Assembly (NCBI GenBank): GCA_020725665.1
Contig: DYEO01000033.1
Span: 5,398 to 69,397 of the forward strand
Origin: Dethiobacter sp.
GTDB lineage: Bacteria; Bacillota; Dethiobacteria; DTU022; UBA8154
Direction of reading: 5' to 3'
Length of the DNA: 64,000 nt
Shown: positions 28,482-40,139 of the stretch, one piece after another
Layout: the number at the start of each line of letters is the position of its first letter
Position numbering within the stretch: position 1 is the first letter of the stretch
The notes under the pieces: model-generated
The model's input: only the letters and a program-made list of their open reading frames with translations
What the model was told of the DNA's origin: nothing
Databases searched by the model: none
Position numbers and translations under genes: made by a program

Positions 28482-30272
28482 TTATTCCCGATTACCTGCA
28501 TCTTGATCCGTCCTGCCGGAAACAAGGCCGTATTTATGCATCTTGTTGAGAATGGTCGGGTGAGTGACCCCCAGGGCCCGTGCCACTTTGCGCGTGCTCC
28601 CACACTGCTGCAGGGCACGGCGCAGTAATTTTTTTTCCAGCATCTCCCGCGCCTCCTGCAAGGGAAGGAGATCGTTAATGCGGAGCAGCAGCTTTTCCCC
28701 GGTAGCAACATCTTCTTTTTCCATCAGCTTGGTAACCTCCCGGAAGGAAACAACATCTTCCCGGACTACCACTACAAGTCGTTCGATCAGGTTTTCCAGC
28801 TCCCGCACGTTGCCCGGCCAGGTGTAGGATTCAAGAACATGGTAAGCCTCCGGCTCCAGGCGCCGGTTTTTCTGGTAACGGGAATTGAATTTTTCCAGAA
28901 AATAAATGGCCAGGGGCATGATGTCTTCCCGTCGCTCCCGCAGGGGAGGAACTTCAATGGAGACGACATTGAGCCGGTAAAACAGGTCGGCACGGAACTG
29001 CTGTGCCTCCACCAGTTTCTTTAAGTCCTTGTTAGTGGAGGCAATGATGCGCACATCAATCTTGCGGGGACTGGCATCCCCAATACGGAAAATCTCCTGT
29101 TCCTGGATTACCCGGAGCAGTTTAACCTGCAGTCCCAAGGGCATTTCGCCAATTTCATCCAGAAGGACCGATCCCTTGTTGCAGTACTCAAATATTCCCA
29201 CCTTGCCCCCCCTGCGTGCCCCGGTAAAAGCACCATCCATGTAGCCAAAAAGTTCCGATTCAAGTAGATTTTCCGGGATCGCTCCGCAGTTAATCTTGAT
29301 AAAGGGGCCGTCAGTGCGGAAGCTTGTCTTGTGAATAATCTTGGCAATGATCTCTTTGCCCACACCCGTTTCGCCTGTAATCAAAACGTTTGAGTCAACC
29401 AGGGCTACGCGTTGGGCCAACTCCAGTACCTTGTGCATCTCCGGACTCTGGGCCACAATGTGATCATGAGCCAGTTGGCGGGCGCGCAAATCCTGCAGCT
29501 CGGAACAAAAGCGCTCCTTGAAGCTGCGGTAATCTTCGGCCTGTGCTTTGAGATTGTTCAGTTCCGTCATATCCCTGATATTACAGATAACTTTTAAGAC
29601 ATTGCCGTTTTCGTCAAAGACAGGGTTGCCGGTGATTAACACTTCCTTGCCTGTTTTGATTTTCTGCTTAATCGTCACGGGTTTTTTCTCCTGAAATACC
29701 ATCAGCCCCACCGCAGGATAGACATGCCGCTTCTTCTCCAGTTCACGGATATTTTGACCCACCCCTGAATCCTCAAGAGTTAATCCGCTAATCTGACGAT
29801 AAGCCTTGTTAACCCGCAGCAGTGTACCGTCAGCATCGATGATGCCAATGCCGTCAAATGAGGATTCGATAATGGCCTCCAGTTCCGTGTTTAGATCTTT
29901 TTCCTTCTGCAACTCCCGGCGCAGCGTATAGAGCTCCGATACATCCTGGAAAACCCCCACCGCTCCCACGATCTTGCCCTCACGTATGATGGGTGAACGA
30001 TTGGAGATAACCGTTACATTACCAACTTTCACGATTTTAGCAGATTCGGGACGACCGGTGCGCAGGACATCGGGTAAGCCGGAATTGGGGATGATCTGGG
30101 AAATGGGCAGGCCCAGAATCTCGTCTCTCTTGATCGAGAGGATTTTCTCCGCTGCCTTGTTGATCAGAACTACTTTCCCTTCCCTGTTTACGGTAACAAT
30201 ACCGTTATACGCCGCGTTGACGATCTCCGCCAATTCATCCTGCTGCAACAGGGGCCATTCTTTTACAGTCAC
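28482..30272 (-). CDS. sigma-54-dependent transcriptional activator (PAS-PAS-AAA+-HTH)
   Basis: 596-aa ORF with GETGVGKE Walker A, ESELFGY, GAFTGA, a C-terminal Fis-type HTH and two PAS-like N-terminal modules. Confidence 0.9.
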   Translation of the reverse strand: MTVKEWPLLQQDELAEIVNAAYNGIVTVNREGKVVLINKAAEKILSIKRDEILGLPISQIIPNSGLPDVLRTGRPESAKIVKVGNVTVISNRSPIIREGKIVGAVGVFQDVSELYTLRRELQKEKDLNTELEAIIESSFDGIGIIDADGTLLRVNKAYRQISGLTLEDSGVGQNIRELEKKRHVYPAVGLMVFQEKKPVTIKQKIKTGKEVLITGNPVFDENGNVLKVICNIRDMTELNNLKAQAEDYRSFKERFCSELQDLRARQLAHDHIVAQSPEMHKVLELAQRVALVDSNVLITGETGVGKEIIAKIIHKTSFRTDGPFIKINCGAIPENLLESELFGYMDGAFTGARRGGKVGIFEYCNKGSVLLDEIGEMPLGLQVKLLRVIQEQEIFRIGDASPRKIDVRIIASTNKDLKKLVEAQQFRADLFYRLNVVSIEVPPLRERREDIMPLAIYFLEKFNSRYQKNRRLEPEAYHVLESYTWPGNVRELENLIERLVVVVREDVVSFREVTKLMEKEDVATGEKLLLRINDLLPLQEAREMLEKKLLRRALQQCGSTRKVARALGVTHPTILNKMHKYGLVSGRTDQDAGNRE

Positions 30273-30391: not shown

Positions 30392-30409
30392 TGGTAATAT
30401 ATTTTACCA
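30392..30409. promoter_or_regulatory. palindromic GGTAw-N6-wTACC site (candidate activator binding site)
   Basis: tGGTAATATATTTTACCa, located about 120 nt upstream of the activator start codon. Confidence 0.45.
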
Positions 30410-30467
30410 GTTTCCGGGCATCTATTTCAAAAAATCAGAAAAAAATAACCATATTGGCTGATTAGCC

Positions 30468-30562
30468 CCCAAAAAGCCTGTTTTCGTAATACTCGCCTTT
30501 AACGAAGTGGCTATTACAGTGACTTTTCCGAGGTCACTTTTCGCCAAACTAGGCTTTTTGGG
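30468..30562. repeat. 95-bp element bounded by perfect 12-bp inverted repeats (MITE-like or structured RNA)
   Basis: cccaaaaagcct ... aggctttttggg encloses nested hairpins (gtaata/tattac; gtgac-ttttccgag-gtcac-tttt). attggct(g/a)a direct repeats lie just outside. Confidence 0.5.
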
Positions 30563-30606
30563 ATTGAATCATTGGCTAAATATGGTATAGAGAAAAGGTT
30601 CCATAC

Positions 30607-30646
30607 TGGTATAATATTTTACCTTGGGTGGTATAAATATTTACCA
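30607..30646. promoter_or_regulatory. two tandem GGTAw-N6-wTACC palindromes, 22 nt centre to centre
   Basis: tGGTATAATATTTTACCt and tGGTATAAATATTTACCa. The pair ends 10 nt before the stop codon of the KPR-family gene. Confidence 0.45.
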
Positions 30647-30655
30647 CAGCAGAAA

Positions 30656-31585
30656 TTATTTACGATGATGGTAAGTACTCTCCAGCGTTTTAATTAACGT
30701 CACCGCTGTTTCATTTACCGGAGTGGGAATCCCCTGTTTTTTCCCTTCTCTGACCACGGCGCCGTTTAAGAAATCTATCTCCGTCTGGCGCTTATGACGA
30801 ATATCAATAACCATGGAGGGATAATGGGCCCGGGCTTCCTCACCCACCTCCATGAGATGCTCCCAGGCACGGTAATAAGGAAGATTGAACCCGGCGGCAC
30901 TGGCTACGGCGGATATTTCTTCCGTTGTAGCCACTAGCAGGCTCCGTGAAGCGTAACAGTCAATAAGTTGCCCAACAGAAAGCCCCAGCAGTGCGCAATA
31001 AGTGTTATAATTGCAATTTACCACGAGTTTTTCCCAGATATGCTGCTTAACATTTTCCGTAACAACCGTGCATAAACCGGCTTTATTAAAAACATCACTC
31101 ACGCACTGGGCGTCTTCCCAGCGTTCTCCGGCCGGCTGGATAGTGGTCTCACCCTCCCCCGCGAAACTCATGAAAATCTTGCCCGGGCCCTCGAGGTCGC
31201 TGGTCAGGGTGGTCATGCCGAAGAGGATATGCTTCCTGTCAATAAATTTTTCAATGATCTCCACATTCCCCAGTCCGTTTTGCAGGGTCAGAACCGCTGT
31301 GTTCTCATCGATTATATCGAGCACACTCTGCATCGCTTCTTCTGTATGAAACCCTTTGACAAAGAGGATAATCAGGTCAACCCGCCCGGCTTCCGAGGCC
31401 TTTGTGGTTGCCCGGGGGGTAACAACAAAGTCCCCTTTATCCCCACACATTTTTAAACCCCGTTCTTTTATGGCATTTATATGCTCTTGCCAAACGTCAA
31501 CAAACCAGACTTCGTTTCCGCTTTTGCACAGCAGGCCGCCAAAAAGGGAACCCATGGCGCCGGCCCCGATAATCGCTATTTTCAT
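30656..31585 (-). CDS. 2-dehydropantoate 2-reductase family (KPR/ApbA) NAD(P)H oxidoreductase
   Basis: 309-aa ORF. It has an MKIAIIGAGAMGSLFG Rossmann N-terminus and a KPR-like C-terminal domain. The physiological substrate is not inferable. Confidence 0.75.
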   Translation of the reverse strand: MKIAIIGAGAMGSLFGGLLCKSGNEVWFVDVWQEHINAIKERGLKMCGDKGDFVVTPRATTKASEAGRVDLIILFVKGFHTEEAMQSVLDIIDENTAVLTLQNGLGNVEIIEKFIDRKHILFGMTTLTSDLEGPGKIFMSFAGEGETTIQPAGERWEDAQCVSDVFNKAGLCTVVTENVKQHIWEKLVVNCNYNTYCALLGLSVGQLIDCYASRSLLVATTEEISAVASAAGFNLPYYRAWEHLMEVGEEARAHYPSMVIDIRHKRQTEIDFLNGAVVREGKKQGIPTPVNETAVTLIKTLESTYHHRK

Positions 31586-31669
31586 CTTTTATCCTCCTGC
31601 CATAGCTTTAAACTTGTACAACTGACACACCCTGTCCTTATGGCCTTCAATATCATGTTCAGCCAACAA

Positions 31670-31754
31670 CCACAAAACATTTCCCCGGGGTGAAGGCATC
31701 CAGTGGTTCCAGCCCTTCAACCCGGGGAAAAAGCAAACGGGGGTTGTTTTGTGG
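31670..31754. repeat. 85-nt extended imperfect palindrome between two cistrons of the sigma-54 operon
   Basis: The outer stem is ccacaaaaca/tgttttgtgg. The inner stem is ccccggggtgaagg/ccttcaacccgggg. Confidence 0.55.
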
Positions 31755-31771
31755 GAAATATATTTTAATTT

Positions 31772-33040
31772 TCAGGTGGACATAAGAGCCCCGTCTGCAT
31801 TAAAACTCATTTCAGTTGCTTCTCCACATATCTCAACATTTTGCAACTCCTGAGCCTGCTGCCGTAAAGACTCGGAGATCCTGATATTCGTCAAAGAAAG
31901 GGTATTTTTTATGTGAATTACCCTCGCTTGGAGAGGTTTTACCCGGGCGCAGGTGTTCAAAGCCACGGCGATGGCATCCCTGTCCGTGGGCATCACCAGG
32001 GGCATCTTGGCCAGGTGTATCACCGTGTTGGTTATGGCATTGGTGTATGTGTCCTCGAAGCTGACCATATCGGCCAGGCGCTGCGTCGTTATATCAGCAA
32101 GCCCAATGCCGAAAGCATTGCCCTTGGTTTTTTTGGTCAGAGAAAGGACGACAATGCGCTGCGGTTCCGAGCCTTCCTCTCCCCGCCTGGGCAAACCACG
32201 GCGAATCACGTTGGGATCAATGCCATCACCGCTGATATCCTTTCCCATTTCATCGATGATCAGTAAATCAAACTGAGGAAAAAGTATCTTCATCATTAAT
32301 GCCGTTGCTTCTTTGAGCAAGTCTTTTTCCCTTGCGATCATCTGTTCCGCTTCAACGGCAACCAGCCTGGCCACTTCATCACGAGCATTTTCCAGCACAG
32401 CCACCCCAAATTTAACCGGTGAATTGCGGAGAATCACGGCACCCGCTTCGGGGATAATCCGGTCAAACAGATCCATGCCCTGGGAGTGGAGCGTGGTGGT
32501 TCCTTTGTGCTTTCCCAGACCGATACAGAGCATCTTCACCAAACCGCTCTCAACTTCGCCGCGAAAATCGGTATGCAGCTTAATTCTGTTCACCGGTATA
32601 ACCACGTCAGCCTGGTACGCCGTTTTATCAAAGAAGACAGGCACGCCGGAAGCAAGGCTTCCGACCTGGCAGACATCCATGGAGGAGACTACCGGGGCTC
32701 CCACCCCTTCCTCCGTGATCCCGTACAGGGCCAAAACCGCTTCCTGCCCTTCCGCCGTGGCTCCGCCATGGCTGCCCATGGCGGGAACAATGAAAGGCTG
32801 CGCCCCCCTGCCTTTTACCCAATGCACCAGTGTCCTCACAATTAATTGGAGGTCGGCAATCCCCCTGCTGCCTACAGCAATGGCCACCCTGTCTCCCGTA
32901 CAAACACGGGAGCGGATGGATTCCCTTTGCAACTCCATCAACAGAGTACGCTCAAGGTTTTGCACACGGGGGTTATCAAAATGCTGATTTACCCGAAGCA
33001 TTTTGGGAAATTCATAAACCAAAAACTTTTGCCAATTCAT
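31772..33040 (-). CDS. LarA N-terminal-like (DUF2088) domain protein of unknown function
   Basis: 422-aa ORF. The blocks RVAIAVGSRGI, PAMGSHGGATAEGQ and RIKLHTDF..ESGL.KM..IGLGKHKG parallel the LarA_N layout. The lactate racemase DHTRP motif is absent. The family call is from memory. Confidence 0.45.
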   Translation of the reverse strand: MNWQKFLVYEFPKMLRVNQHFDNPRVQNLERTLLMELQRESIRSRVCTGDRVAIAVGSRGIADLQLIVRTLVHWVKGRGAQPFIVPAMGSHGGATAEGQEAVLALYGITEEGVGAPVVSSMDVCQVGSLASGVPVFFDKTAYQADVVIPVNRIKLHTDFRGEVESGLVKMLCIGLGKHKGTTTLHSQGMDLFDRIIPEAGAVILRNSPVKFGVAVLENARDEVARLVAVEAEQMIAREKDLLKEATALMMKILFPQFDLLIIDEMGKDISGDGIDPNVIRRGLPRRGEEGSEPQRIVVLSLTKKTKGNAFGIGLADITTQRLADMVSFEDTYTNAITNTVIHLAKMPLVMPTDRDAIAVALNTCARVKPLQARVIHIKNTLSLTNIRISESLRQQAQELQNVEICGEATEMSFNADGALMST

Positions 33041-33048
33041 TGTTTACC

Positions 33049-34521
33049 TTAGCCTTTCGCCACGGCATCCTGCATAGTGTTTTTCTCAATCCCCTGCGTA
33101 GCAAGACTGACGATAAGCATAACCACTGCACCGGTAATTGTTGCGTAAGTGCCACAGATAAACGAGTTCGGGATAATTTTGCCGAAGAACAGGTACATGT
33201 GGACAGCGGGCCCGACGATCATGGCCGCAATGGCACCGTATTTATTGGCTCCTTTCCAGTACATGCCCCAAAGCATCGGTCCTACACACCCGGCGAGAAA
33301 ACCAAAGACGCCGAAAGCAGAAAGAATAGCCAGTAAAGCAGGCGGTTTCATTGCATAAAAAGCGCCAAAAGCGCAGGCAAAGATAATGACAATCCGGCCG
33401 ATAAGGAATGATGTACGTTCTGTTTTTTCGGCAGGCATGTTGGTGCGTTTGGCGATAATGCGTCTAAAAACGTCATTACCCGCAACCGTACCCATGGAGA
33501 CAAGAATGGAATCCAGGGTGGAGGTTCCGGCGGAAATAAGGCCCAGCCCTAAAATCGCAGCGAGTATACCAGGGAAATAAGTGGTAATCAACTCGAGCGT
33601 TGCCCTGTCGGGATATTGTAATCCGGGCAGCAACACCCTGGCATAGAGGCCGCCAAAAACGGAGAGGGAAAGGATAAATACTGTAATGCCGGCGGTAAAA
33701 ATCATCTTTTTAAAGTCCTTTGCCTCCTGGAGCATAAGAAACTTGTTTGCCATGTGGGGTGATAAGAGCATGACAAACTGGTAGAAGCTAAATCCAAAAA
33801 TCGCCAGGGGGCCGGCAAAAATCATAAATCCCGGATTAAATGGTTTCAATAGAGCGGGATTCTGTTGGAAAAGCCCAAGATTAATCTCACCAATACTGTT
33901 GAAGAAAACGAAACCGAGAGAAGCAATAATAACGGCCAGCAGGCACATGATCACCGTCTGTAAAACGTCCGTTTTGATCACGGCATAGTTGCCGCCAAAG
34001 AAGCTGTAGAGGGCAGCGATGATAGCAGCAATGATAATACCCGTCTGGTAGTCCATTCCCATGATAATATGAAAGATATGGCCGAACCCCGCAAGGATGC
34101 TGATGACAAAGAAGAGGTTAAAGAAATAAATGAGGCTGGCCAATCCCCTTACCACATCACTTCCAAAACGATGGCCCATCCAGTCAGGTACCTGTAAAGA
34201 GCCAAGTTTCAGGCCGATTTCCCGGAAATATTTACCAGCAATAACAATGCCAAATGCATGAACCAGGGGAACCATCATCAGCCACCACAGGCCTGATAGT
34301 CCACCAAGGTATACAAATCCTGCCACCCCCATAAATGTGGCCACACTTGCCTGTGTCGCCGCAATGGACATCCCTAACTGGTAAGGGCCTATTCTAGCCG
34401 TTGTCCTGGGAACGGAAAATTCATCAAAGTTCGGAGATAATGTATAACCTTTATAACCAATGTAAATTACGCCTATTGTCCATAATGTAAATAATAACCA
34501 AAACCATGCCGAAGAGTCCAT
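33049..34521 (-). CDS. sodium:solute symporter family transporter
   Basis: About 490 aa and polytopic, of SSS type. I place the start at the ATG (MDSSAWFW) after aaggag. The track start would overlap the upstream small ORF. Confidence 0.8.
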   Translation of the reverse strand: MDSSAWFWLLFTLWTIGVIYIGYKGYTLSPNFDEFSVPRTTARIGPYQLGMSIAATQASVATFMGVAGFVYLGGLSGLWWLMMVPLVHAFGIVIAGKYFREIGLKLGSLQVPDWMGHRFGSDVVRGLASLIYFFNLFFVISILAGFGHIFHIIMGMDYQTGIIIAAIIAALYSFFGGNYAVIKTDVLQTVIMCLLAVIIASLGFVFFNSIGEINLGLFQQNPALLKPFNPGFMIFAGPLAIFGFSFYQFVMLLSPHMANKFLMLQEAKDFKKMIFTAGITVFILSLSVFGGLYARVLLPGLQYPDRATLELITTYFPGILAAILGLGLISAGTSTLDSILVSMGTVAGNDVFRRIIAKRTNMPAEKTERTSFLIGRIVIIFACAFGAFYAMKPPALLAILSAFGVFGFLAGCVGPMLWGMYWKGANKYGAIAAMIVGPAVHMYLFFGKIIPNSFICGTYATITGAVVMLIVSLATQGIEKNTMQDAVAKG

Positions 34522-34561
34522 TTGTTTATACACTCCTTTTTCAATTTTGTTTGCAACAGTT

Positions 34562-34651
34562 TTAATAGGTTTTTTGAACAACCAGATACAAAATTACCCA
34601 TGTAACAACAATCCAAAGGGGAGCAAACCACCACATAATAGTATTAGCCAT
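34562..34651 (-). CDS. 29-aa single-TM small protein (symporter small accessory protein-like)
   Basis: It is below the ORF-track cutoff. ggaggtgatgat precedes the ATG. The product is MANTIMWWFAPLWIVVTWVILYLVVQKTY, encoded directly upstream of the SSS gene. Confidence 0.45.
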   Translation of the reverse strand: MANTIMWWFAPLWIVVTWVILYLVVQKTY

Positions 34652-34698
34652 ATCATCACCTCCTTTGCAAGTTACTCAATTACTCCTAAATGTTATAT

Positions 34699-34716
34699 AT
34701 GCAAAGAATATGCCAA
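34699..34716 (-). promoter_or_regulatory. sigma-54 promoter P1 (-24/-12)
   Basis: The minus strand reads TTGGCATATTCTTTGCAT, an exact TGGCA-N6-TTGCA match with 10 nt between GG and GC. It lies about 50 nt upstream of the small ORF/symporter operon. Confidence 0.65.
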
Positions 34717-34892
34717 GTCTAATACCAATTTTTAATATATCTGTATGAAAAATGGAATAAAATGCTATACCTCAATCTTACACAATAATTCTTATTTCGC
34801 CATTATACTTCCTTATTCCATATCTCTATTTAGTAACAACCATCCTCCCCCATAAATAATTGTATATGTCTAAGCATTACTAAAAAATATAT

Positions 34893-34910
34893 CTGCAATA
34901 ATTATGCCAA
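34893..34910 (-). promoter_or_regulatory. sigma-54 promoter P2, a duplicate about 190 nt upstream of P1
   Basis: The minus strand reads TTGGCATAATTATTGCAG with the same exact spacing. The downstream flank (atata..tttag..taat) resembles that of P1. Confidence 0.5.
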
Positions 34911-34975
34911 TATTTAGTTTGGTACAAAAAACCTTAAAAGTGTGGCTTTAACTGATACATATAGAAAATGTTTAG

Positions 34976-34993
34976 TGGTAAGATAAATTACCA
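34976..34993. promoter_or_regulatory. GGTAw-N6-wTACC palindrome (candidate UAS)
   Basis: tGGTAAGATAAATTACCa, about 83 nt upstream of P2. Confidence 0.45.
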
Positions 34994-35075
34994 TTTTAGT
35001 TTACAGGCCACTGCAAAACGGTTAAAATATGCGAACTGAACAGCGATCAAGAGATACACTACAGCTCCCGCAAAG

Positions 35076-35116
35076 CGGTAATATTGTTTACCATACTGCG
35101 GTAAGGGGAAATACCA
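35076..35116. promoter_or_regulatory. two tandem GGTAw-N6-wTACC palindromes (candidate UAS pair)
   Basis: cGGTAATATTGTTTACCa and cGGTAAGGGGAAATACCa, 23 nt centre to centre. They lie between the divergent sigma-54 promoters. Confidence 0.45.
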
Positions 35117-35208
35117 GCATCATCTTTCCCATACCACTGTTGCAGTGGTACCATCAGAAATGATCGGAACCACAGCTGGCGGGAGATGCCTGAGGGGCCT
35201 TCCTTTTA

Positions 35209-35231
35209 GATGTCGGATGTCGGAGTGCCGG
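35209..35231 (+). repeat. (GATGTCG)2 followed by GAGTGCCGG
   Basis: Read directly from the sequence. The same terminal motif (gagtgccgg) follows the GGAAGTT array at 28406-28415. Confidence 0.7.
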
Positions 35232-35369
35232 CGAGCCGGGAAACAACATCCACCGTTATTTTTTTTAATGAATGCCAGCATGCTAATACAGTGGCATAAG
35301 CAAAAGGACGAAATTCAATGATACAACAAGAGTTCTTCTTTTTTGGTTTCTCATGTGGCACACTGACCT

Positions 35370-35399
35370 GGCGGGCAATTAAGACCCGCCCCTTGTACA
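35370..35399 (+). repeat. REP-like GC-rich hairpin copy
   Basis: ggcgggcaattaagacccgccccttgtaca, compared with gggcgggcacggagacccgcccctaca at 45097-45123. Confidence 0.55.
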
Positions 35400-35431
35400 T
35401 TTGACTTCCGTATTTATGCCATAAGGCAAGA

Positions 35432-35447
35432 TGGCAAGATAATTGCA
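35432..35447 (+). promoter_or_regulatory. sigma-54 promoter P3 for the oxidoreductase operon
   Basis: TGGCAAGATAATTGCA with exact -24/-12 spacing, 90 nt upstream of the TTG start at 35537. Confidence 0.6.
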
Positions 35448-35536
35448 AGTAATTAAGGTAAAGGGAATCAGAAAGAAATAGACGGGCTCCGCTTAAAAAA
35501 ACGGCACTACCAAAGAAACCCGGAGGTGTTAAAGCA

Positions 35537-36085
35537 TTGCTGCAAATCAGGATGCACGGACGCGGTGGCCAGGGAGCGCAAATGGCGGCGCAGATACTGG
35601 CAACGGCATTTTTCCGTGAAGGGAAATATGTTCAGGCTTTTGCCACCTATGGCGGGGCAAGGCGCGGCACAGCGGTAAGTTCTTTTTTACGTATCGCTGA
35701 CCGGCCGATCCGCCTGCGCTGTGATATTGAGGACCCCGATGCCATTCTCTGTTTTGATGCCAGCCTGCTTGAGGATAAATTACTTAAAGGGGCTACCGAA
35801 AAAACATTGATCCTGGTAAATTCTACGATGCCACCGGAGGCTTTTAAGGAGTTCGACAGCCTAAAAATATTCACCGTCGACGGCAAGAGCATCGCCGGCC
35901 GCAATGGTTTGGGACGTATTGTCAACTCTGCCCTGCTGGGAGCCTTTGCCGGTTTGCTTGGTGCCCCCGCTTTTCAGAACCTGCAAAGTGTTGTTGAGGA
36001 AATGAGCCCGGTAAAAGTAAAAGAAAACGTCAGTTCCTGTCTGGAGGGGTATGAACTGGCCAGGACAATTAAAGGGGTGGCATAA
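35537..36085 (+). CDS. 2-oxoacid:ferredoxin oxidoreductase gamma subunit
   Basis: 182-aa ORF. The N-terminus IRMHGRGGQGAQMAAQILA is typical of POR/VOR/KOR gamma subunits. The ggaggtg SD lies 8 nt before the TTG. Confidence 0.85.
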   Translation: MLQIRMHGRGGQGAQMAAQILATAFFREGKYVQAFATYGGARRGTAVSSFLRIADRPIRLRCDIEDPDAILCFDASLLEDKLLKGATEKTLILVNSTMPPEAFKEFDSLKIFTVDGKSIAGRNGLGRIVNSALLGAFAGLLGAPAFQNLQSVVEEMSPVKVKENVSSCLEGYELARTIKGVA

Positions 36086-37762
36086 ATGGCGAAAACAATG
36101 GGCGAAGTTCATGAAGTGCCAACCACCTGGACAACGGGTTGGACTGATATTTTTAATACGGGAACCTGGCGCAGCGTCATGCCGGTGCACCAGCGCCGCT
36201 ACGCACCATGTCACGCTGCCTGTCCGGTAAGCGGGGAGATCCCCACCTGGATTCAGCAGTTAAAAAAGGGGGATTACCAGGAAGCCTGGCTGACCCTGGT
36301 CGCCAACAACCCCTTTCCTGCTGTTACGGGAAGGGTCTGCCACCACCCCTGTGAGCTTAAGTGCAACCGCAATGAATATGACGAAAAAGTTTCCGTAAAA
36401 ACCCTGGAACGCTGCCTGGGAGATATGGCCCTGGAAAAGAACTGGAAATTACCCACAAGTGATCAGCTGAAAGATGAAAAAATCGCCGTTGTCGGTGCAG
36501 GCCCTGCCGGCCTCTCCGCCGCATACCAACTCAGAGCCAGAGGTTTTGGCGTGACGATATACGAGGCCCGCCAACAACCGGGTGGACTTTTGTATTACGG
36601 CATCCCTGCCTACCGCCTGCCTCGGAATATACTCAAGGGTGAAATGGAAAGATTGCTGCAAACCGGCATTGAACTCCTGGCAGGCACTCCCCTGAAGAGC
36701 CCTGCTGACTTCAAACAACTGGAGGAGAAATATGCGGCCGTTTTCATAGCCACGGGTGCGCAGCGCTCCCTTGGCCTGCCTGAGCTGGAAGGCGCGGCGG
36801 AGGTGCTCGATGGCTTGTATTTTCTCGAAAGAGTTAATGAAGGGGCGCCACCGGAGCTTGGCAGTAAGGTGGTTGTTATCGGCGGGGGCAATACGGCCGT
36901 GGACGCGGCCCGCTGTGCTCTGCGTCTGGGTTCCCGGGATGTTGCCATTCTCTACCGTCGGGGCAGAGAACAGATGCCGGCCCAGGCCGAAGAGATCGCT
37001 GAAGCGGAAGAAGAGGGAGTTAAACTGGAACTGCTGGCCGCCCCGATAGCGCTAAAAAAAGAGGGGCAGAAAAAGATACTGCTTTGCCGGAGAATGCGGC
37101 TGGGAGCACCCGACGCATCGGGACGGCAGCGTCCCGAACCAGTGGCAGGTCAAACGTTTGCCATGGAGATAGATACATTGATCTGCGCCACCGGTGCAGA
37201 AGCGGATCTTACACCCCTGCAGGGGGTGCTGCCGGCGGCAGGGTCCCTTGTTCAGGTTGACGGGGAGCAGGGGACAGGGCGCAAAGGCTTTTTTGCCGGC
37301 GGAGATCTAACGAGCAGGGAACGTTATGTTGCCAGCGCTATTGGTACCGGCAGGCGCGGCGCGGCTGCCATTGCACGTTTTTTAGGTGTGCCGGAGGAGA
37401 TCGGCAAGGCGGATGGATTAGACGAAGATCCCGTTGTTTTTGCAGATATTAACACTTATTACTTTTCCTCACTACCGACGCTTAAAAAAAGCAAAGCAGC
37501 AGCGGCACGAGTCGCTGATTTTAGGGAAATTGAACCGGGAATTGGCCTGGATGAGGCAGCAGCGGAGGCGGAGCGTTGTTTCAGTTGCGGCAACTGCCTG
37601 CACTGTGACAACTGCTTTTATTTCTGCCCTGATATGGCCGTACAGCGGGACGAAACTGCAGCTGAGGGTTATCGCGTGCTTGACCAGTACTGCAAGGGCT
37701 GCGGCCTCTGTGCCGCCGAATGCCCCCGCGGCGCCATCGTTTTAAAGGAGGAGATAAAATGA
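36086..37762 (+). CDS. GltD-like NAD(P)H:FAD oxidoreductase fused to a 2x[4Fe-4S] ferredoxin (delta-type) domain
   Basis: 558-aa ORF. The N-terminal Cys clusters match the glutamate synthase small-subunit type. VVGAGPAGLSAAYQL and VIGGGNTAVD are dinucleotide folds. The C-terminus is CFSCGNCLHCDNC...CKGCGLCAAECP. Confidence 0.8.
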   Translation: MAKTMGEVHEVPTTWTTGWTDIFNTGTWRSVMPVHQRRYAPCHAACPVSGEIPTWIQQLKKGDYQEAWLTLVANNPFPAVTGRVCHHPCELKCNRNEYDEKVSVKTLERCLGDMALEKNWKLPTSDQLKDEKIAVVGAGPAGLSAAYQLRARGFGVTIYEARQQPGGLLYYGIPAYRLPRNILKGEMERLLQTGIELLAGTPLKSPADFKQLEEKYAAVFIATGAQRSLGLPELEGAAEVLDGLYFLERVNEGAPPELGSKVVVIGGGNTAVDAARCALRLGSRDVAILYRRGREQMPAQAEEIAEAEEEGVKLELLAAPIALKKEGQKKILLCRRMRLGAPDASGRQRPEPVAGQTFAMEIDTLICATGAEADLTPLQGVLPAAGSLVQVDGEQGTGRKGFFAGGDLTSRERYVASAIGTGRRGAAAIARFLGVPEEIGKADGLDEDPVVFADINTYYFSSLPTLKKSKAAAARVADFREIEPGIGLDEAAAEAERCFSCGNCLHCDNCFYFCPDMAVQRDETAAEGYRVLDQYCKGCGLCAAECPRGAIVLKEEIK

Positions 37763-38919
37763 TCAGTAAACCGACCGCCATGCTCCTCACCGGGAATCAC
37801 GCCGTATCTTACGGGGCGATGCTCGCCAGACCCAAGGTTATTCCCATCTATCCCATCACTCCCCAGACCCCCATAGCGGAGAAGCTTACCGAATTGCAAC
37901 TCAGCGGGGCACTGGAAGCGGAAACGATGACTCCCGAATCGGAACATTCCGCCATGGCCGCCTGTATCACCGCCTCCCTGGCCGGTGTGCGCGTTTTTAC
38001 GGCCACGGCTTCCCAGGGACTTATGCTCATGCATGAAATGCTCCATTACGCCTCGGGCGCCCGGGCCCCCATTGTCATGGCCAATGTGAACCGGACCATC
38101 GGGTCCCCCTGGGGCTTCTGGCCCGACCAGACCGACAGCCTGGCCCAGCGGGATACGGGTTGGATACATTATTATACGGAAAGTGCGCAGGAGTCGCTGG
38201 ATACGGTGCTGCAGGCTTACCGCACGGCAGAGCAGGTTTCCCTGCCCGCCATGGTTATCCATGAGGCATTTTACGTCTCCCACTCCCTGGAGGTTGTGGA
38301 GGTACCTTCCCATGCCATGGTGGACTCCTACCTGCCGCCCTTTACGCCGGAAATAATGCTTGACCCCTCAATTAATCGTTCATGGGGAAACGTGGTCAAC
38401 CAGGAGATGTTCTGGCGGCACCGCAAGTACCTGGGAGAAGCAATGGAACAAACACTGGAAGTGGCAGCCAAAGCTGATGCACAGTGGAAAGAACTGACGG
38501 GACGCGGTTATGAGCTGGTTGAGGCATACCGCTGCGCGGATGCCGAGGTTATTATCGTGACCATGGGGAGTATGGCCGGAACAACACGGGAAGCCGTGGA
38601 TATGATGCGTGCACGGGGGCTTGCCGCCGGGCTGCTGAAGGTGCGCCTTTTCCGTCCGTTCCCGGTACAAAAGCTGCAAAGTCTGCTCAAAGGTGTACCC
38701 CGGGTGATGATCATGGATCGCAACTTTTCCCCCGGCCTGGGAGGAGTGCTGCACCAGGAGGTCAAGGCAGCCCTTTACGGCATGAAGAAAGCTCCCCCTC
38801 TCTACGGTTACCTGGTGGGAGTAGGCGGCCTCAATGTTTCCCCTGCACTAATTGAAAAGCTGGTAAGAAGAACGCTTCGGGAAAAAGCGGAAATAAACTC
38901 TATTTGGGTAGGTGAGTAA
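37759..38919 (+). CDS. 2-oxoacid:ferredoxin oxidoreductase alpha subunit
   Basis: MISKPTAMLLTGNHAVSYGAM..IYPITPQT is a POR alpha-type N-terminus. The ATG overlaps the upstream stop (atga). Confidence 0.85.
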   Translation: MISKPTAMLLTGNHAVSYGAMLARPKVIPIYPITPQTPIAEKLTELQLSGALEAETMTPESEHSAMAACITASLAGVRVFTATASQGLMLMHEMLHYASGARAPIVMANVNRTIGSPWGFWPDQTDSLAQRDTGWIHYYTESAQESLDTVLQAYRTAEQVSLPAMVIHEAFYVSHSLEVVEVPSHAMVDSYLPPFTPEIMLDPSINRSWGNVVNQEMFWRHRKYLGEAMEQTLEVAAKADAQWKELTGRGYELVEAYRCADAEVIIVTMGSMAGTTREAVDMMRARGLAAGLLKVRLFRPFPVQKLQSLLKGVPRVMIMDRNFSPGLGGVLHQEVKAALYGMKKAPPLYGYLVGVGGLNVSPALIEKLVRRTLREKAEINSIWVGE

Positions 38920-39820
38920 AGTGGAAAACAAGGCCAACGCTGCCAGGTACTACGATATACACGAGGAGAAGGTATTCAATTCCGGGCACCAGGCCTGCCC
39001 CGGTTGCGGGCAAGCCCTGGCTTTTCGCTATGTCCTGAATACCATGGGTCCGGAGACAATTGCGGTGGTGCCTCCTTCATGTGCGGCCATAATATCCGGT
39101 CCACAGCCCTACAGCTCCATGCGCATCCCCGTTTACCAGACTACGCTGGAGGCCAGTGCAGCCTCTGCAGCAGGTATCAAGAGGGCACTCATAGCCAGGG
39201 GTAAGGAACACGTACATGCCATTGCCATCGCCGGAGACGGGGGAACCTATGACATCGGTTTTCAAGCTCTCTCCTCGGCTGCGGAACGGGGCGAGGATAT
39301 CATCTATTTCTGCATGGACAACGAAGGTTATATGAATACGGGTACGCAGAAGAGTTCTTCCACCCCCCGCTACGCCTATACCACTTCCACCCCCGGGGGC
39401 AAGCCCACGAAGAAAAAAAACCTGGCAGAGATCATGGCCGCCCACCAGATCCCCTACGTGGCCACGGCCACGGTGGGTTTTCCCGACGATCTTGTGCGCA
39501 AGGTAAAAAAAGCTAAAGAAATTAAGGGAACACGGGTTATTATTATTCTTACACCCTGCCTGGACGGCTGGGGACTTGCAGACAATGCATCGGTAAAGAT
39601 CTCCCGCCTGGCGGTATTTACTGGCATTTTCCCTCTTTACGAGGTGGAAAACGGGGTCAAATACACCCTCACCCATGGATCTGACGGGACTCCCATCTCC
39701 GCTTACCTCAAGCCGCAGCGCCGCTACCGGCACCTCACGGCAGAGCAGATTGACACGATTCAGCAGGAAGTGGACGAACAATACGATATCCTGCTGCGCC
39801 GCGTAAAGTGTTTTGCTTAA
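38912..39820 (+). CDS. 2-oxoacid:ferredoxin oxidoreductase beta subunit (TPP-binding)
   Basis: 302-aa ORF with CPGCG and GDGG..DIG TPP-binding motifs. It has a GTG start overlapping the end of the alpha gene. Confidence 0.85.
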   Translation: MSKVENKANAARYYDIHEEKVFNSGHQACPGCGQALAFRYVLNTMGPETIAVVPPSCAAIISGPQPYSSMRIPVYQTTLEASAASAAGIKRALIARGKEHVHAIAIAGDGGTYDIGFQALSSAAERGEDIIYFCMDNEGYMNTGTQKSSSTPRYAYTTSTPGGKPTKKKNLAEIMAAHQIPYVATATVGFPDDLVRKVKKAKEIKGTRVIIILTPCLDGWGLADNASVKISRLAVFTGIFPLYEVENGVKYTLTHGSDGTPISAYLKPQRRYRHLTAEQIDTIQQEVDEQYDILLRRVKCFA

Positions 39821-40139
39821 AACCCCCTTTTTTATAAAGGCGATGCAGATTTTTGTAGTTTCCCTTGACGTTCAGCTTAAAGATGCTTTAACATTAAATG
39901 CGGCAAAATCAATTCGGCAAATGACGGAAGCAAAAAAATGTTCAGTGAAAGGCGGCTTAAAGATGCCGGCATGCTTGTGCTGCGGCAAAAAAATTGAGGC
40001 CGATTATCTCCTTTGGAAAGGGGGAGAAAATCGGTCTTTTTGCGAGAAATGCAATAACGAGGAAGAATTTTCCTCTATATTCGGCCGTATAGTTGATACG
40101 GGAAAGGAAAATATAAAGATGATGCTACCACCAAAGTAA
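39813..40139 (+). CDS. hypothetical small protein with CxxC...CxxC zinc-ribbon-like motif (start uncertain)
   Basis: The ORF contains ACLCCGKK...FCEKCNN. No clear SD is present, and the true product may be the C-terminal ~58 aa. Confidence 0.25.
   Translation: MLKTPFFIKAMQIFVVSLDVQLKDALTLNAAKSIRQMTEAKKCSVKGGLKMPACLCCGKKIEADYLLWKGGENRSFCEKCNNEEEFSSIFGRIVDTGKENIKMMLPPK

Follow-up and report, generated by a model that had tools for sequence, protein, structure and literature searches.

A predicted sigma-54-dependent module for conversion of an imported 2-hydroxycarboxylate to acyl-CoA in Dethiobacter sp.

Results

Gene content of the locus

The window, by which we mean the whole 64,000-nucleotide stretch of DNA that was analysed, comes from Dethiobacter sp., a groundwater anaerobe, and contains a nine-gene module bounded on the left by trmK/NIF3 and on the right by coat F and MBL-fold genes. 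Sequencing runs that carry the locus are DNA metagenome runs only. An earlier note on this DNA had described two divergent operons around a common control region, with an adjoining gene for a PAS-PAS-AAA+ activator. ORF and domain checks agree with that description, and all nine genes were found where it had placed them:

28482..30272, minus strand: sigma-54 enhancer-binding activator, PAS-PAS-AAA+-HTH, 596 aa (Pfam domains)
30656..31585, minus strand: ketopantoate-reductase (KPR)-family dehydrogenase, 309 aa (ApbA and ApbA_C)
31772..33040, minus strand: LarA homolog of group 22, 422 aa (NF052515)
33049..34521, minus strand: SSS-family importer, 490 aa from ATG 34521; the ORF reaches TTG 34581 (Pfam SSF)
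34562..34651, minus strand: hydrophobic ORF, 29 aa (ORF call, Shine-Dalgarno)
35537..36085, plus strand: 2-oxoacid:ferredoxin oxidoreductase (OFOR) gamma, 182 aa (Pfam POR, 3e-35)
36086..37762, plus strand: GltD/NfnB-like flavoprotein fused to OFOR delta ferredoxin, 558 aa (NF009410, Fer4_20, Pyr_redox_2, PorD_KorD)
37720..38919, plus strand: OFOR alpha, 399 aa (POR_N and PFOR_II)
38912..39820, plus strand: OFOR beta, ThDP-binding, 302 aa (TPP_enzyme_C)

Content and coordinates stand as originally described, with two exceptions. The symporter more likely starts at ATG 34521, which has AAGGAG nine nt upstream and gives the same 490-aa product as the source's own call, and the LarA-like protein is 409 aa long in the source call. 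The symporter matches Pfam SSF (6.6e-38), its best named symporter model is PanF (141 bits; cut-off 328), and a search of 5.8 billion proteins found no relative above 30% identity. The 29-aa ORF is preceded by a strong AAGGAGGTG Shine-Dalgarno sequence and encodes one hydrophobic helix; no homolog or Pfam match was found for it. It may encode a small membrane protein that serves as a subunit of the symporter.

Sigma-54 promoters and palindromes

The activator contains Sigma54_activat (6e-68), two PAS domains, AAA_lid_14 and HTH_50, and among NCBIfam models PrdR comes closest (461 bits; cut-off 795). The earlier note had made its sigma-54 reading depend on rpoN, which the genome encodes; the other two elements of such a regulon, an enhancer-binding protein whose AAA+ domain is of the sigma-54 interaction type and promoters of the -24/-12 kind, are present as well. 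TGGCA-N6-TTGCW has 4 matches in the 64 kb, every one within 34237-35447, against 0.48 expected, and at least 4 matches were reached in 0 of 100 shuffles. Exact copies of GGTAW-N6-WTACC number 7 in the window, 6 of them in the regulon, where they flank both operons and the activator gene. The control features are as follows:

34700..34715, minus strand: P1, predicted sigma-54 -24/-12 promoter TGGCATATTCTTTGCA, 49 nt upstream of the 29-aa ORF
34894..34909, minus strand: P2, second leftward sigma-54 promoter-like site TGGCATAATTATTGCA (motif match)
35432..35447, plus strand: P3, predicted sigma-54 promoter TGGCAAGATAATTGCA, 90 nt upstream of the OFOR gamma start
34977, 35077 and 35100 (span 34977..35115), no strand: three exact GGTAW-N6-WTACC palindromes, candidate common upstream activating sequences
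30393-30408, 30608-30623 and 30630-30645, no strand: three exact GGTAW-N6-WTACC palindromes between the KPR stop and the activator start
30430-30401 and 30384-30356, minus strand: sigma-70-like promoters of the activator (sequence)

Leftward transcription may start from P1, P2 or both. The palindromes at 30393..30645 are candidate binding sites for the activator, and autoregulation is possible; the copy at 30393-30408 overlaps the -10 element of one of the sigma-70-like promoters. In a genome of the same genus (G108) the sigma-54/palindrome/OFOR unit is kept and a TRAP binding protein replaces the left operon. Two equivalent palindromes lie there between divergent sigma-54 promoters, and the counterpart of P3 stands 66 nt upstream of gamma.

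A group 22 LarA homolog with intact catalytic and cofactor residues

The 422-aa protein had been proposed as a LarA relative, and this is borne out by a curated HMM, the two-domain LarA fold, and the catalytic and cofactor residues. It scores 515.5 bits against NF052515, the model for LarA group 22 (cut-off 400; residues 11-397), and is called LarAH22 below. Sequence-only PDB searches with this protein gave no match. With an AF2 model (pLDDT 88.5), the top 18 Foldseek PDB matches were all LarA-family (E 2e-12 to 5e-10, probability 1.00, TM ~0.5-0.56), and the following match had an E of 4e-3. R59, H91, H156, K169 and H185, which are invariant in 25 homologs, correspond to LarA R75, H108, H174, K184 and H200, positions being mapped through Bcoa_1745 (Table S3 of PMC7583248); in LarA, H108 and H174 are the catalytic histidines, and R75, K184 and H200 bind the nickel-pincer nucleotide (NPN). 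The genome also encodes the cofactor proteins for which the earlier note had suggested a search: LarB (296 bits against a cut-off of 175), LarC (207 against 90) and LarE (348 against 150). We predict that LarAH22 is a nickel-pincer-cofactor-dependent isomerase, a 2-hydroxyacid racemase/epimerase.

Lactate racemase proper (LarA group 1) was rejected as its identity, with Y294, Q295, K298, F175, F176 and W358 replaced by D275, P276, I279, T157, D158 and A335. Group 22 LarAHs are without assigned activity in the literature (PMC7583248), and the specificity residues of LarAH22 (T, D, A, I) match none of LAR, GntE, HGR, MAR or HHR (PMC11770544). The usual neighbours of the group form a sugar-acid context of SDR, dehydratases, TRAP transporters and KDG kinase/aldolase (Table S1, PMC7583248), as they also do at locus L094. 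Because of these contexts, and because the group lacks LarA Y294/Q295/K298, the reaction could conceivably be polar-acid epimerisation or something else.

A dehydrogenase of the D-mandelate type

The KPR protein passes the broad-subfamily model TIGR00745 (256 bits against 141) and, in the NCBIfam comparison, rises above the cut-off of no equivalog model. Its PDB matches are led by 3wfi/3wfj/5x20 (180 bits) and 2ew2 of E. faecalis (175 bits), with E. coli PanE at 96-99 bits (1ks9 at 96); 3wfi we take to be the E. faecium D-ManDH. The HYPSM motif and an Asp at the end of beta2 (D30) are common to the KPR protein and its best matches. Relative to E. coli PanE, N194 has become V204, N241 H254 and R31 D30, while K176, N98, N180, S244 and E256 (E. 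coli numbering) are kept. In the E. coli ternary-complex structure, Asn194 and Asn241 are the pantoate contacts and Arg31 binds the NADPH 2'-phosphate; with all three replaced, a true PanE was rejected.

These features lend weight to the suggestion in the earlier note of a D-2-hydroxyacid dehydrogenase, a D-mandelate-dehydrogenase-type motif and an NAD-type residue having both been found. The protein resembles, by its residues, NADH-dependent D-mandelate/D-2-hydroxyacid dehydrogenases and not PanE. LAB 'PanE' enzymes are D-2-hydroxyacid dehydrogenases, and the same source assigns 2ew2 to E. faecalis (bioRxiv 10.1101/2024.01.05.573888). The genome has panB and no second KPR-family gene, so the KPR protein could additionally serve pantothenate synthesis.

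An OFOR with a fused GltD-like subunit

The rightward operon encodes the features of a four-subunit POR/VOR-type OFOR: alpha, beta and gamma domains, a ThDP domain, Thr31 and Arg114. The gamma subunit scores 150 bits against TIGR02175 (cut-off 81), and the flavoprotein-ferredoxin fusion 542.5 bits against NF009410 (cut-off 516), with PorD_KorD at residues 503-556. The fusion carries GAGPAG (FAD) and GGGNTA...ILYRRG, the latter apparently of NADPH type and thus suggestive of NADP+, and it has CxxCxxCxxxCP twice, at 504 and at 536 (2x[4Fe-4S]). The top PDB match of alpha is 9bt4_B, a PFOR alpha (285 bits). Compared with the D. africanus enzyme, alpha keeps the equivalents of the carboxylate-binding T31 and R114 and has W for L121 and F for I123. 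Its clade-specific pocket motif, PWGFW, occurs in alpha of 7/7 GltD-fused OFORs and is missing from conventional ones, which have PINI(W/H). Beta scores 354 against a VOR-beta-type model and 334 against PorB (cut-off 405 in each case).

Two assignments were rejected. A POR or VOR equivalog is disfavoured by scores under the cut-offs (PorA_Arch 413/550, PorC 141/270, VOR beta as above) and by a delta that is fused, not free. As a PadEFGHI ortholog, the enzyme scores 104/300, 279/700 and 229/700 against NF045762, NF045764 and NF045766, below the POR/VOR models.

Comparative loci

The strongest support for reading these genes as one module comes from comparative loci. In a tree, the LarAH22 of the window clusters with those of L011 and P0100, two metagenomic relatives (SH-aLRT 96), and the LarAH22s of the window, L011 and L133 form one clade. 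L011, a Desulfitobacteriaceae MAG, has the order IclR-GlcD-GlcF-LarAH22-gamma-GltD/Fd-alpha-beta-ABC, and L133 the order TRAP-Amdase-gamma-GltD/Fd-alpha-beta-LarAH22-GlcD-IclR. Both place LarAH22 directly beside, and co-directional with, the OFOR type of the window, and both have a GlcD-like D-specific FAD dehydrogenase; their importers are of other types (ABC or TRAP). A core of LarAH22, D-dehydrogenase, GltD-OFOR and importer recurs, then, in three architectures, with importers of the SSS, ABC and TRAP families. Because every partner dehydrogenase family is D-specific, the need for a racemase is explained.

The earlier note had proposed the order import, racemisation, oxidation and oxidative decarboxylation. 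That order gains independent support from these two operons, in which the same LarAH22 subclade and OFOR type go with non-orthologous D-specific dehydrogenases and importers. The LarAH22-KPR-activator arrangement is found again in L144 and L145, at 74-85% identity; on the metagenome contig L144, an activator ortholog (85% identical) lies downstream of LarAH22-KPR. Among 80 LarAH22 loci of other species, any OFOR was nearby in only 2, and KPR, SSS or GltD in none.

Candidate substrates

Our leading guess, a tentative one, is an aromatic 2-hydroxyacid (mandelate, for instance) or else an aryl-lactate, in which case the product would enter benzoyl-CoA or arylacetyl-CoA metabolism. Several observations count towards it. 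The sole characterised OFOR with a GltD-like subunit is phenylglyoxylate:NAD+ oxidoreductase (PMC5109826). The binding protein of L011 is nearest CouP-type aromatic-acid binders (PMC3610893), at 150 bits versus 62 for LivJ. The PWGFW pocket of OFOR alpha and a genomic bamA/oah match (575 bits; cut-off 464) point the same way. OFOR orthologs occur in 6 genomes of the class, and 6/6 fall among the 32/149 with a bamA or bamA-like match (hypergeometric p ~7e-5, a value that ignores kinship and is confounded by shared ancestry).

Branched-chain 2-hydroxyacids are possible but somewhat more doubtful. Lactate or 2-hydroxybutyrate seems unlikely, and polar hydroxyacids such as pantoate equally so. Contrary to the aromatic lead, a polar substrate is indicated by L133, because its TRAP binding protein sits nearest the pantoate/erythronate/KDG-binding clade (PMC11668362).

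Discussion

The locus probably encodes a catabolic module under sigma-54 control, in which a chiral 2-hydroxycarboxylate is taken up and converted to acyl-CoA; its activities, direction and regulation we infer from sequence. The PAS-PAS enhancer-binding protein would sense the substrate or a metabolite and bind the GGTAW-N6-WTACC palindromes, whereupon the sigma-54 promoters would fire in both directions. Uptake would be carried out by the small peptide and the divergent SSS symporter. LarAH22, with nickel-pincer nucleotide supplied by LarB/C/E, would interconvert the L and D forms through proton-coupled hydride transfer between two histidines, and the KPR enzyme, acting as an NAD+-dependent D-specific 2-hydroxyacid dehydrogenase, would deliver the 2-oxoacid. 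The ThDP/Fe-S OFOR would then oxidatively decarboxylate the 2-oxoacid to acyl-CoA and CO2. Because the delta ferredoxin and a GltD-like FAD protein form one polypeptide, the two electrons would pass to NAD(P)+ (the motif suggests NADP+) and not to free ferredoxin. Such a pathway offers a role that can be tested, both for group 22 LarAHs and for the oxidoreductase with its unusual NAD(P) linkage.

We consider it rather improbable that the operons are two separate units behind one control region, with a self-contained OFOR and a left operon for some other polar acid (a sugar acid or pantoate-like compound) whose KPR product is not fed to the OFOR. OFOR orthologs do occur without LarAH22 or KPR (G012, G112, G087 and G108), and in OFOR-only versions the partners are a TRAP transporter and IclR; the sugar-acid contexts typical of group 22, the PanF-like symporter and the L133 binding protein, which is like pantoate/erythronate binders, lean in the same direction. 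Against this, sigma-54 promoters and identical palindromes are common to both operons, in L011 and L133 an OFOR of this type adjoins LarAH22s that belong to one clade with that of the window, and the KPR protein is without the pantoate-contacting Asn194 and Asn241.

There is a still slimmer chance that the left operon supplies a coenzyme A precursor and is not catabolic, the KPR protein being a biosynthetic ketopantoate reductase and the symporter a pantothenate/pantoate importer. This would suit a sole KPR-family gene in a genome with panB, the TIGR00745 score above the subfamily cut-off and PanF as best named symporter model, but the PanF score is far under its cut-off, Asp30 stands in place of Arg31, and Asn194/Asn241 are replaced as in D-mandelate dehydrogenases. 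Sigma-54/enhancer-binding-protein control and an OFOR are also atypical of a vitamin pathway, natural D-pantoate leaves the racemase without a role, and IlvC can perform the ketopantoate-reduction step in other bacteria. Least probable is a biosynthetic or fermentative module running from acyl-CoA through 2-oxoacid to 2-hydroxyacid, in which the GltD-like subunit marks an electron-confurcating/bifurcating OFOR or a reductive 2-oxoacid synthase: some flavoproteins of the GltD/NfnB type are bifurcating enzymes and the KPR-family LAB enzymes are physiologically 2-oxoacid reductases, but importers of three families serve the three architectures, NAD(P)H alone is thermodynamically insufficient for reductive carboxylation, and the characterised analogue, Pad, is catabolic.

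The proposed catabolic module follows the logic of the Pseudomonas putida mandelate pathway, in which MdlA is a racemase, MdlB a dehydrogenase and MdlC a benzoylformate decarboxylase: a 2-hydroxyacid is racemised, one enantiomer is oxidised, and the product is decarboxylated by a ThDP enzyme. All the enzymes are nevertheless non-homologous. An NPN-dependent LarAH stands in place of the enolase-superfamily MdlA, a predicted NAD/KPR-type D-specific dehydrogenase in place of the FMN L-specific one, and a CoA-acylating Fe-S OFOR in place of a non-oxidative decarboxylase; the module, as predicted, is oxygen-independent and makes acyl-CoA directly.

PadEFGHI of Azoarcus evansii/Aromatoleum, the CoA-benzoylating phenylglyoxylate:NAD+ oxidoreductase (Hirsch et al. 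1998, cited in PMC5109826), is a characterised precedent, absent from the earlier note, for an NAD-linked OFOR of such subunit make-up. Its genes follow the order seen in the module: gamma first, then an NAD-binding flavoprotein of GltD type, alpha, a delta that resembles ferredoxin, and beta. Pad is a catabolic enzyme that delivers electrons to a pyridine nucleotide, as the module is proposed to do. In the module, by contrast, delta is fused to the flavoprotein C-terminus, the YRRG motif suggests NADP, and the PadE (104/300), PadG (279/700) and PadI (229/700) scores are far under their cut-offs.

In LarAH groups 10 and 11, racemases have GlcD/GlcF-type D-2-hydroxyacid dehydrogenases as partners (Desguin et al. 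2020, PMC7583248). There, an NPN racemase beside a D-specific dehydrogenase makes both enantiomers usable, which is exactly the pairing in L011 and L133; the window differs in having a KPR-family dehydrogenase plus an NAD(P)-linked OFOR. The best structural relatives of that dehydrogenase are the Enterococcus/Lactococcus 'PanE' enzymes (D-mandelate/D-2-hydroxyisocaproate dehydrogenase), which share with it HYPSM, an acidic residue of NAD type where beta2 ends, and a hydrophobic side chain at the position of E. coli Asn194. The KPR protein stands at ~35-40% identity to them and differs in its predicted oxidative direction and its place in a putative catabolic operon.

Organization of the locus

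The two divergent operons and the neighboring activator gene described in the earlier note were all recovered, at the same coordinates, by ORF, Pfam and NCBIfam analysis of the window:

28482-30272 (-), PAS-PAS-AAA+-HTH sigma-54 activator, adjoining the KPR gene
30656-31585 (-), KPR-family protein, leftward operon
31772-33040 (-), 422-aa Lar_N/DUF362-like protein, leftward operon
33049-34581 (-), SSS-family symporter, start more likely ATG 34521, leftward operon
34562-34651 (-), 29-aa ORF, leftward operon
35537-36085 (+), gamma subunit of the 2-oxoacid:ferredoxin oxidoreductase (OFOR), rightward operon
36086-37762 (+), GltD-like/ferredoxin fusion, 558 aa, rightward operon
37720-38919 (+), OFOR alpha, rightward operon
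38912-39820 (+), OFOR beta, rightward operon

The left flank carries trmK and NIF3, and the right flank encodes coat F, an MBL-fold protein, a SLOG protein and a UvrD helicase. Because these genes are unrelated to it, the module is self-contained, and it includes no enzyme that would use the acyl-CoA product. The MBL-fold gene 3′ of the OFOR has a counterpart at L130, an OFOR-only locus in a related genome; at 26% identity over 150 aa, it was rejected as a module member. Just 3′ of OFOR beta, positions 39963-40139 (+) encode a Cys-rich, zinc-ribbon-like peptide of ~58 aa (MPACLCCGKK...FCEKCNNEE), which gave no Pfam match when read as a 108-aa ORF. The symporter (33049-34521, -) is effectively an orphan, and its G+C content of about 0.38-0.47 is below the approximately 0.56 measured for the OFOR operon. 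The source genome comprises 2.98 Mb in 90 contigs and is 96% complete. The organism originates from groundwater and subsurface metagenomes, and the runs that hold the locus are exclusively DNA metagenomes from such samples.

A predicted sigma-54 control region

Control by sigma-54, as proposed earlier, is consistent with the presence of rpoN in the genome (419 bits against a cut-off of 277). The sequence TGGCA-N6-TTGCW occurs 4 times in the 64 kb, with 0.48 expected, and this number was reached in 0 of 100 shuffles. Three of the four sites lie in the 885-bp control region, at 34700(-), 34894(-) and 35432(+). The fourth, an exact TGGCA-N6-TTGCT at 34237-34252 (-), falls within the symporter gene near its 5′ end and could represent either an internal promoter or a chance match. 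Exact copies of the palindrome GGTAW-N6-WTACC number seven in the window, of which three are found in the interval separating the divergent promoters and another three in the gap from the KPR stop to the activator start. The activator gene has sigma-70-like promoters in front of it, and the overlap of one of them with a palindrome suggests autoregulation of the activator.

The orthologous OFOR operon of a genome of the same genus (G108; 72-88% identity) has a control region of the same layout, with a sigma-54 promoter 66 nt 5′ of gamma, a pair of palindromes and another sigma-54 promoter in divergent orientation, and there the symporter-LarA-KPR set is replaced by a gene for a lipoprotein TRAP-type binding protein. 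The two intergenic regions are too diverged for an alignment to reveal anything beyond the palindromes common to both. An Rfam scan of the 885-bp region matched no family. Between the palindromes and the site at 35432, a GC-rich stretch (35140-35330) contains a GATGTCG tandem, a gccggcgagccgg hairpin and a T-run. This stretch is missing from the intergenic region of G108, which is shorter; the stretch may be a copy or remnant of a small heptamer-armed hairpin element.

The 422-aa protein is a group-22 LarA homolog

Pfam gives the 422-aa protein weak Lar_N (3.8e-7) and DUF362 matches. Its proposed kinship with LarA is borne out by NCBIfam model NF052515, "nickel pincer cofactor-dependent isomerase, group 22", which it matches at 515.5 bits against a cut-off of 400, and we refer to it as LarAH22. 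Searches of the PDB by sequence (phmmer) and with a 25-sequence profile did not find LarA, which was reached through fold comparison only: with an AlphaFold model of pLDDT 88.5, the top 18 Foldseek matches were all LarA-family (E 2e-12 to 5e-10; next match 4e-3). Residues were mapped to LarA via the table of Desguin et al. 2020 (PMC7583248), where group 22 is defined, is listed as of "unknown function", and occurs mostly with SDRs, dehydratases, TRAP transporters and sugar kinases. R59, H91, H156, K169 and H185 correspond to LarA R75, H108, H174, K184 and H200 and are invariant in 25 homologs, whereas the LarA substrate residues Y294, Q295 and K298 are replaced by D, P and I. The four specificity positions of a 2024 study (PMC11770544) read T, D, A and I, matching none of the predicted classes. 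The genome also has the nickel-pincer cofactor genes to be expected with such an enzyme: the neighboring larB and larC, and larE, all scoring above their cut-offs.

Group 22 is large, with about 8,000 matches at E ≤ 1e-10. A second paralog in the source genome (contig C47:3782-5020, locus L131), 39-40% identical to LarAH22, has housekeeping neighbors (cyclophilin, FTCD_C, FolD and a tRNA U5-methyltransferase) and no catabolic partners; locus L010 shows a similar orphan context.

Partner enzymes

The best solved relatives of the KPR protein are 3wfi/3wfj/5x20 (180 bits), the 8wl series and E. faecalis 2ew2 (175 bits), with E. coli PanE at 96-99 bits; 3wfi we take to be D-mandelate dehydrogenase from E. 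faecium. The protein retains the catalytic Lys, Glu and Asn set. Relative to the E. coli enzyme, Asn194 is replaced by Val, Asn241 by the His of an HYPSM motif common to the top matches, and the NADPH-binding Arg31 by Asp. Given the closest structures and these residue changes, we read the protein as a putative NAD-dependent D-2-hydroxyacid dehydrogenase. "PanE" proteins of Enterococcus and Lactococcus are NADH-dependent enzymes of that kind (bioRxiv 10.1101/2024.01.05.573888). It is also the only KPR-family gene in the genome, where panB is present, and a side role in pantothenate synthesis is therefore possible. In locus L143 (an ENA ERZ27301261 contig), genes of the hydantoinase A/B family precede an ortholog with 84% identity, and one GGTATTTATAATTACC palindrome comes after it; in a relative, the same dehydrogenase and regulatory site may therefore be combined with a different front end.

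The alpha, beta and gamma subunits of the OFOR belong with the POR/VOR group but score under every NCBIfam equivalog cut-off, with the models for phenylglyoxylate:NAD+ oxidoreductase (Pad) lower still. The 558-aa protein scores above the NF009410 subfamily cut-off and carries a FAD motif, a nucleotide motif (GGGNTA...ILYRRG) that appears by analogy to be of the NADPH type, and a C-terminal 2x[4Fe-4S] domain matching PorD. The carboxylate-binding Thr31 and Arg114 of D. africanus PFOR are conserved here, and its side-chain pocket residues L-S-I-F are replaced by W-G-F-W. The resulting PWGFW motif is conserved in 7 of 7 GltD-fused OFORs examined; no conventional OFOR in the comparison has it, including the one in this genome. 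An OFOR clade can thus now be defined by a delta ferredoxin fused to a GltD-like flavoprotein and by the pocket motif PWGFW.

Recurrence of the LarAH22-OFOR association

The decisive evidence for the module is comparative genomics. Among the loci of 80 species with a group-22 gene, an OFOR was nearby in two, and a KPR, SSS or GltD fusion gene in none. Locus L011 of a Desulfitobacteriaceae MAG encodes in a single direction IclR, GlcD-like and GlcF-like proteins, LarAH22, gamma, the GltD/ferredoxin fusion, alpha, beta and a Liv-type ABC importer. On metagenomic contig L133 the order is TRAP, Amdase-family, gamma, GltD/ferredoxin fusion, alpha, beta, LarAH22, GlcD-like and IclR. In a 63-protein group-22 tree, the window's LarAH22, whose nearest relatives are about 50% identical, forms a clade with the L133 protein (P0100) and the L011 group (SH-aLRT 96).

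One LarAH22 subclade is thus tied three times to one OFOR clade, each time with a D-specific dehydrogenase and an importer. Across the three architectures the dehydrogenase is of KPR or GlcD type and the importer SSS, ABC or TRAP; a constant core with non-orthologous replacement of accessory steps is what a shared pathway would lead one to expect. The presence of a racemase is explained by the D-specificity of every partner dehydrogenase. The LarAH22-KPR-activator arrangement recurs on two short metagenomic contigs (L144, L145; 74-85% identity), and related genomes carry OFOR-only versions with IclR, or with IclR and TRAP (L129, L130).

The left operon resembles a lineage-specific front end that was joined to a portable OFOR cassette, because LarAH22 lacks a close ortholog in 149 genomes of the class, same genus included (none >47% identity), and no relative of the symporter exceeds 30% identity among 5.8 billion proteins (best 25-30%). 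The GltD-fused OFOR clade itself seems to form a portable cassette for "2-oxoacid to acyl-CoA + NAD(P)H", which anaerobes pair with varied importers, regulators and front-end enzymes.

Substrate of the module

Several leads point to an aromatic, mandelate-type substrate: the precedent of Pad, the resemblance of the KPR protein to D-mandelate dehydrogenase, the aromatic PWGFW pocket, an L011 binding protein closest to CouP-type aromatic-acid binders (PMC3610893; 150 bits against 62 for LivJ), and a bona fide bamA/oah gene in the genome (575 bits, cut-off 464). Of the 149 class genomes, 32 have a bamA or bamA-like match, and these include all six that carry the OFOR ortholog (hypergeometric p about 7e-5, uncorrected for shared ancestry); within one genus the two features co-vary (2/2 versus 0/3). 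Against these stand the higher scores of POR/VOR than of Pad models, an L133 TRAP binding protein closest to a pantoate/erythronate/KDG-binding clade (PMC11668362), the mostly sugar-acid associations of group 22, and a PanF-like symporter. On balance we favor an aromatic substrate only tentatively, at somewhat under even chances. A lactate-specific reading was rejected: the LarA substrate residues are not kept, and the KPR and OFOR pocket motifs are unlike those of lactate- or pyruvate-type enzymes.

The bamA/oah gene of the source genome (contig C84:20000-34100, locus L154) lies in an aromatic and alicyclic acyl-CoA cluster with genes for an SDR, a thiolase-domain protein, a D-2-hydroxyacid dehydrogenase, a HadB/HadC- or BcrB/BcrC-like pair, IorA/IorB and two acyl-CoA ligases. 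The arylmalonate-decarboxylase-family gene (PF17645) at L133 4557-5285, flanked by the TRAP genes and the GltD-fused OFOR, is possibly another hint at substrate class. The L130 TRAP binding protein has 4mnc/4mni as its best PDB match, with a ligand that we presume to be benzoylformate and did not use as evidence.

A proposed pathway and its relation to known systems

Taken together, the comparative genomics, rpoN, the lar genes and the LarA fold and residues support, at the level of inference, the interpretation offered in the earlier note. Import, racemization, oxidation and oxidative decarboxylation to an acyl-CoA are probably the general mechanism. It is rather doubtful, though conceivable, that the module amounts to an oxygen-independent equivalent of the mandelate pathway, feeding arylglyoxylate through benzoyl-CoA into a bamA route. 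The group-22 LarA homolog would then be a nickel-pincer-dependent aryl-2-hydroxyacid (mandelate-type) racemase, followed by a KPR-type D-mandelate dehydrogenase. The NADP-linked, GltD-fused OFOR of the new PWGFW clade would convert phenylglyoxylate or arylglyoxylate directly to benzoyl-CoA, to be consumed by the organism's bamA-containing ring-degradation pathway.

If true, this would provide a first function for LarAH group 22 and, with an aromatic substrate, describe an anaerobic mandelate-type route. The OFOR-linked LarAH22 subclade offers a narrow, testable hypothesis on group 22, with natural partner enzymes for coupled assays. The parts of the module belong to known kinds; their combination, like the implied roles of LarAH group 22 and the GltD-fused OFOR clade, appears to be undescribed in the searchable literature. 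The phenylglyoxylate-to-benzoyl-CoA step in anaerobes without PadEFGHI is reported as unresolved (PMC5109826), and the module would supply a candidate for it in aromatic degraders of that kind. The OFOR described here equals PadEFGHI in subunit set and gene order (PMC5109826) and differs from it in having delta fused to the flavoprotein.
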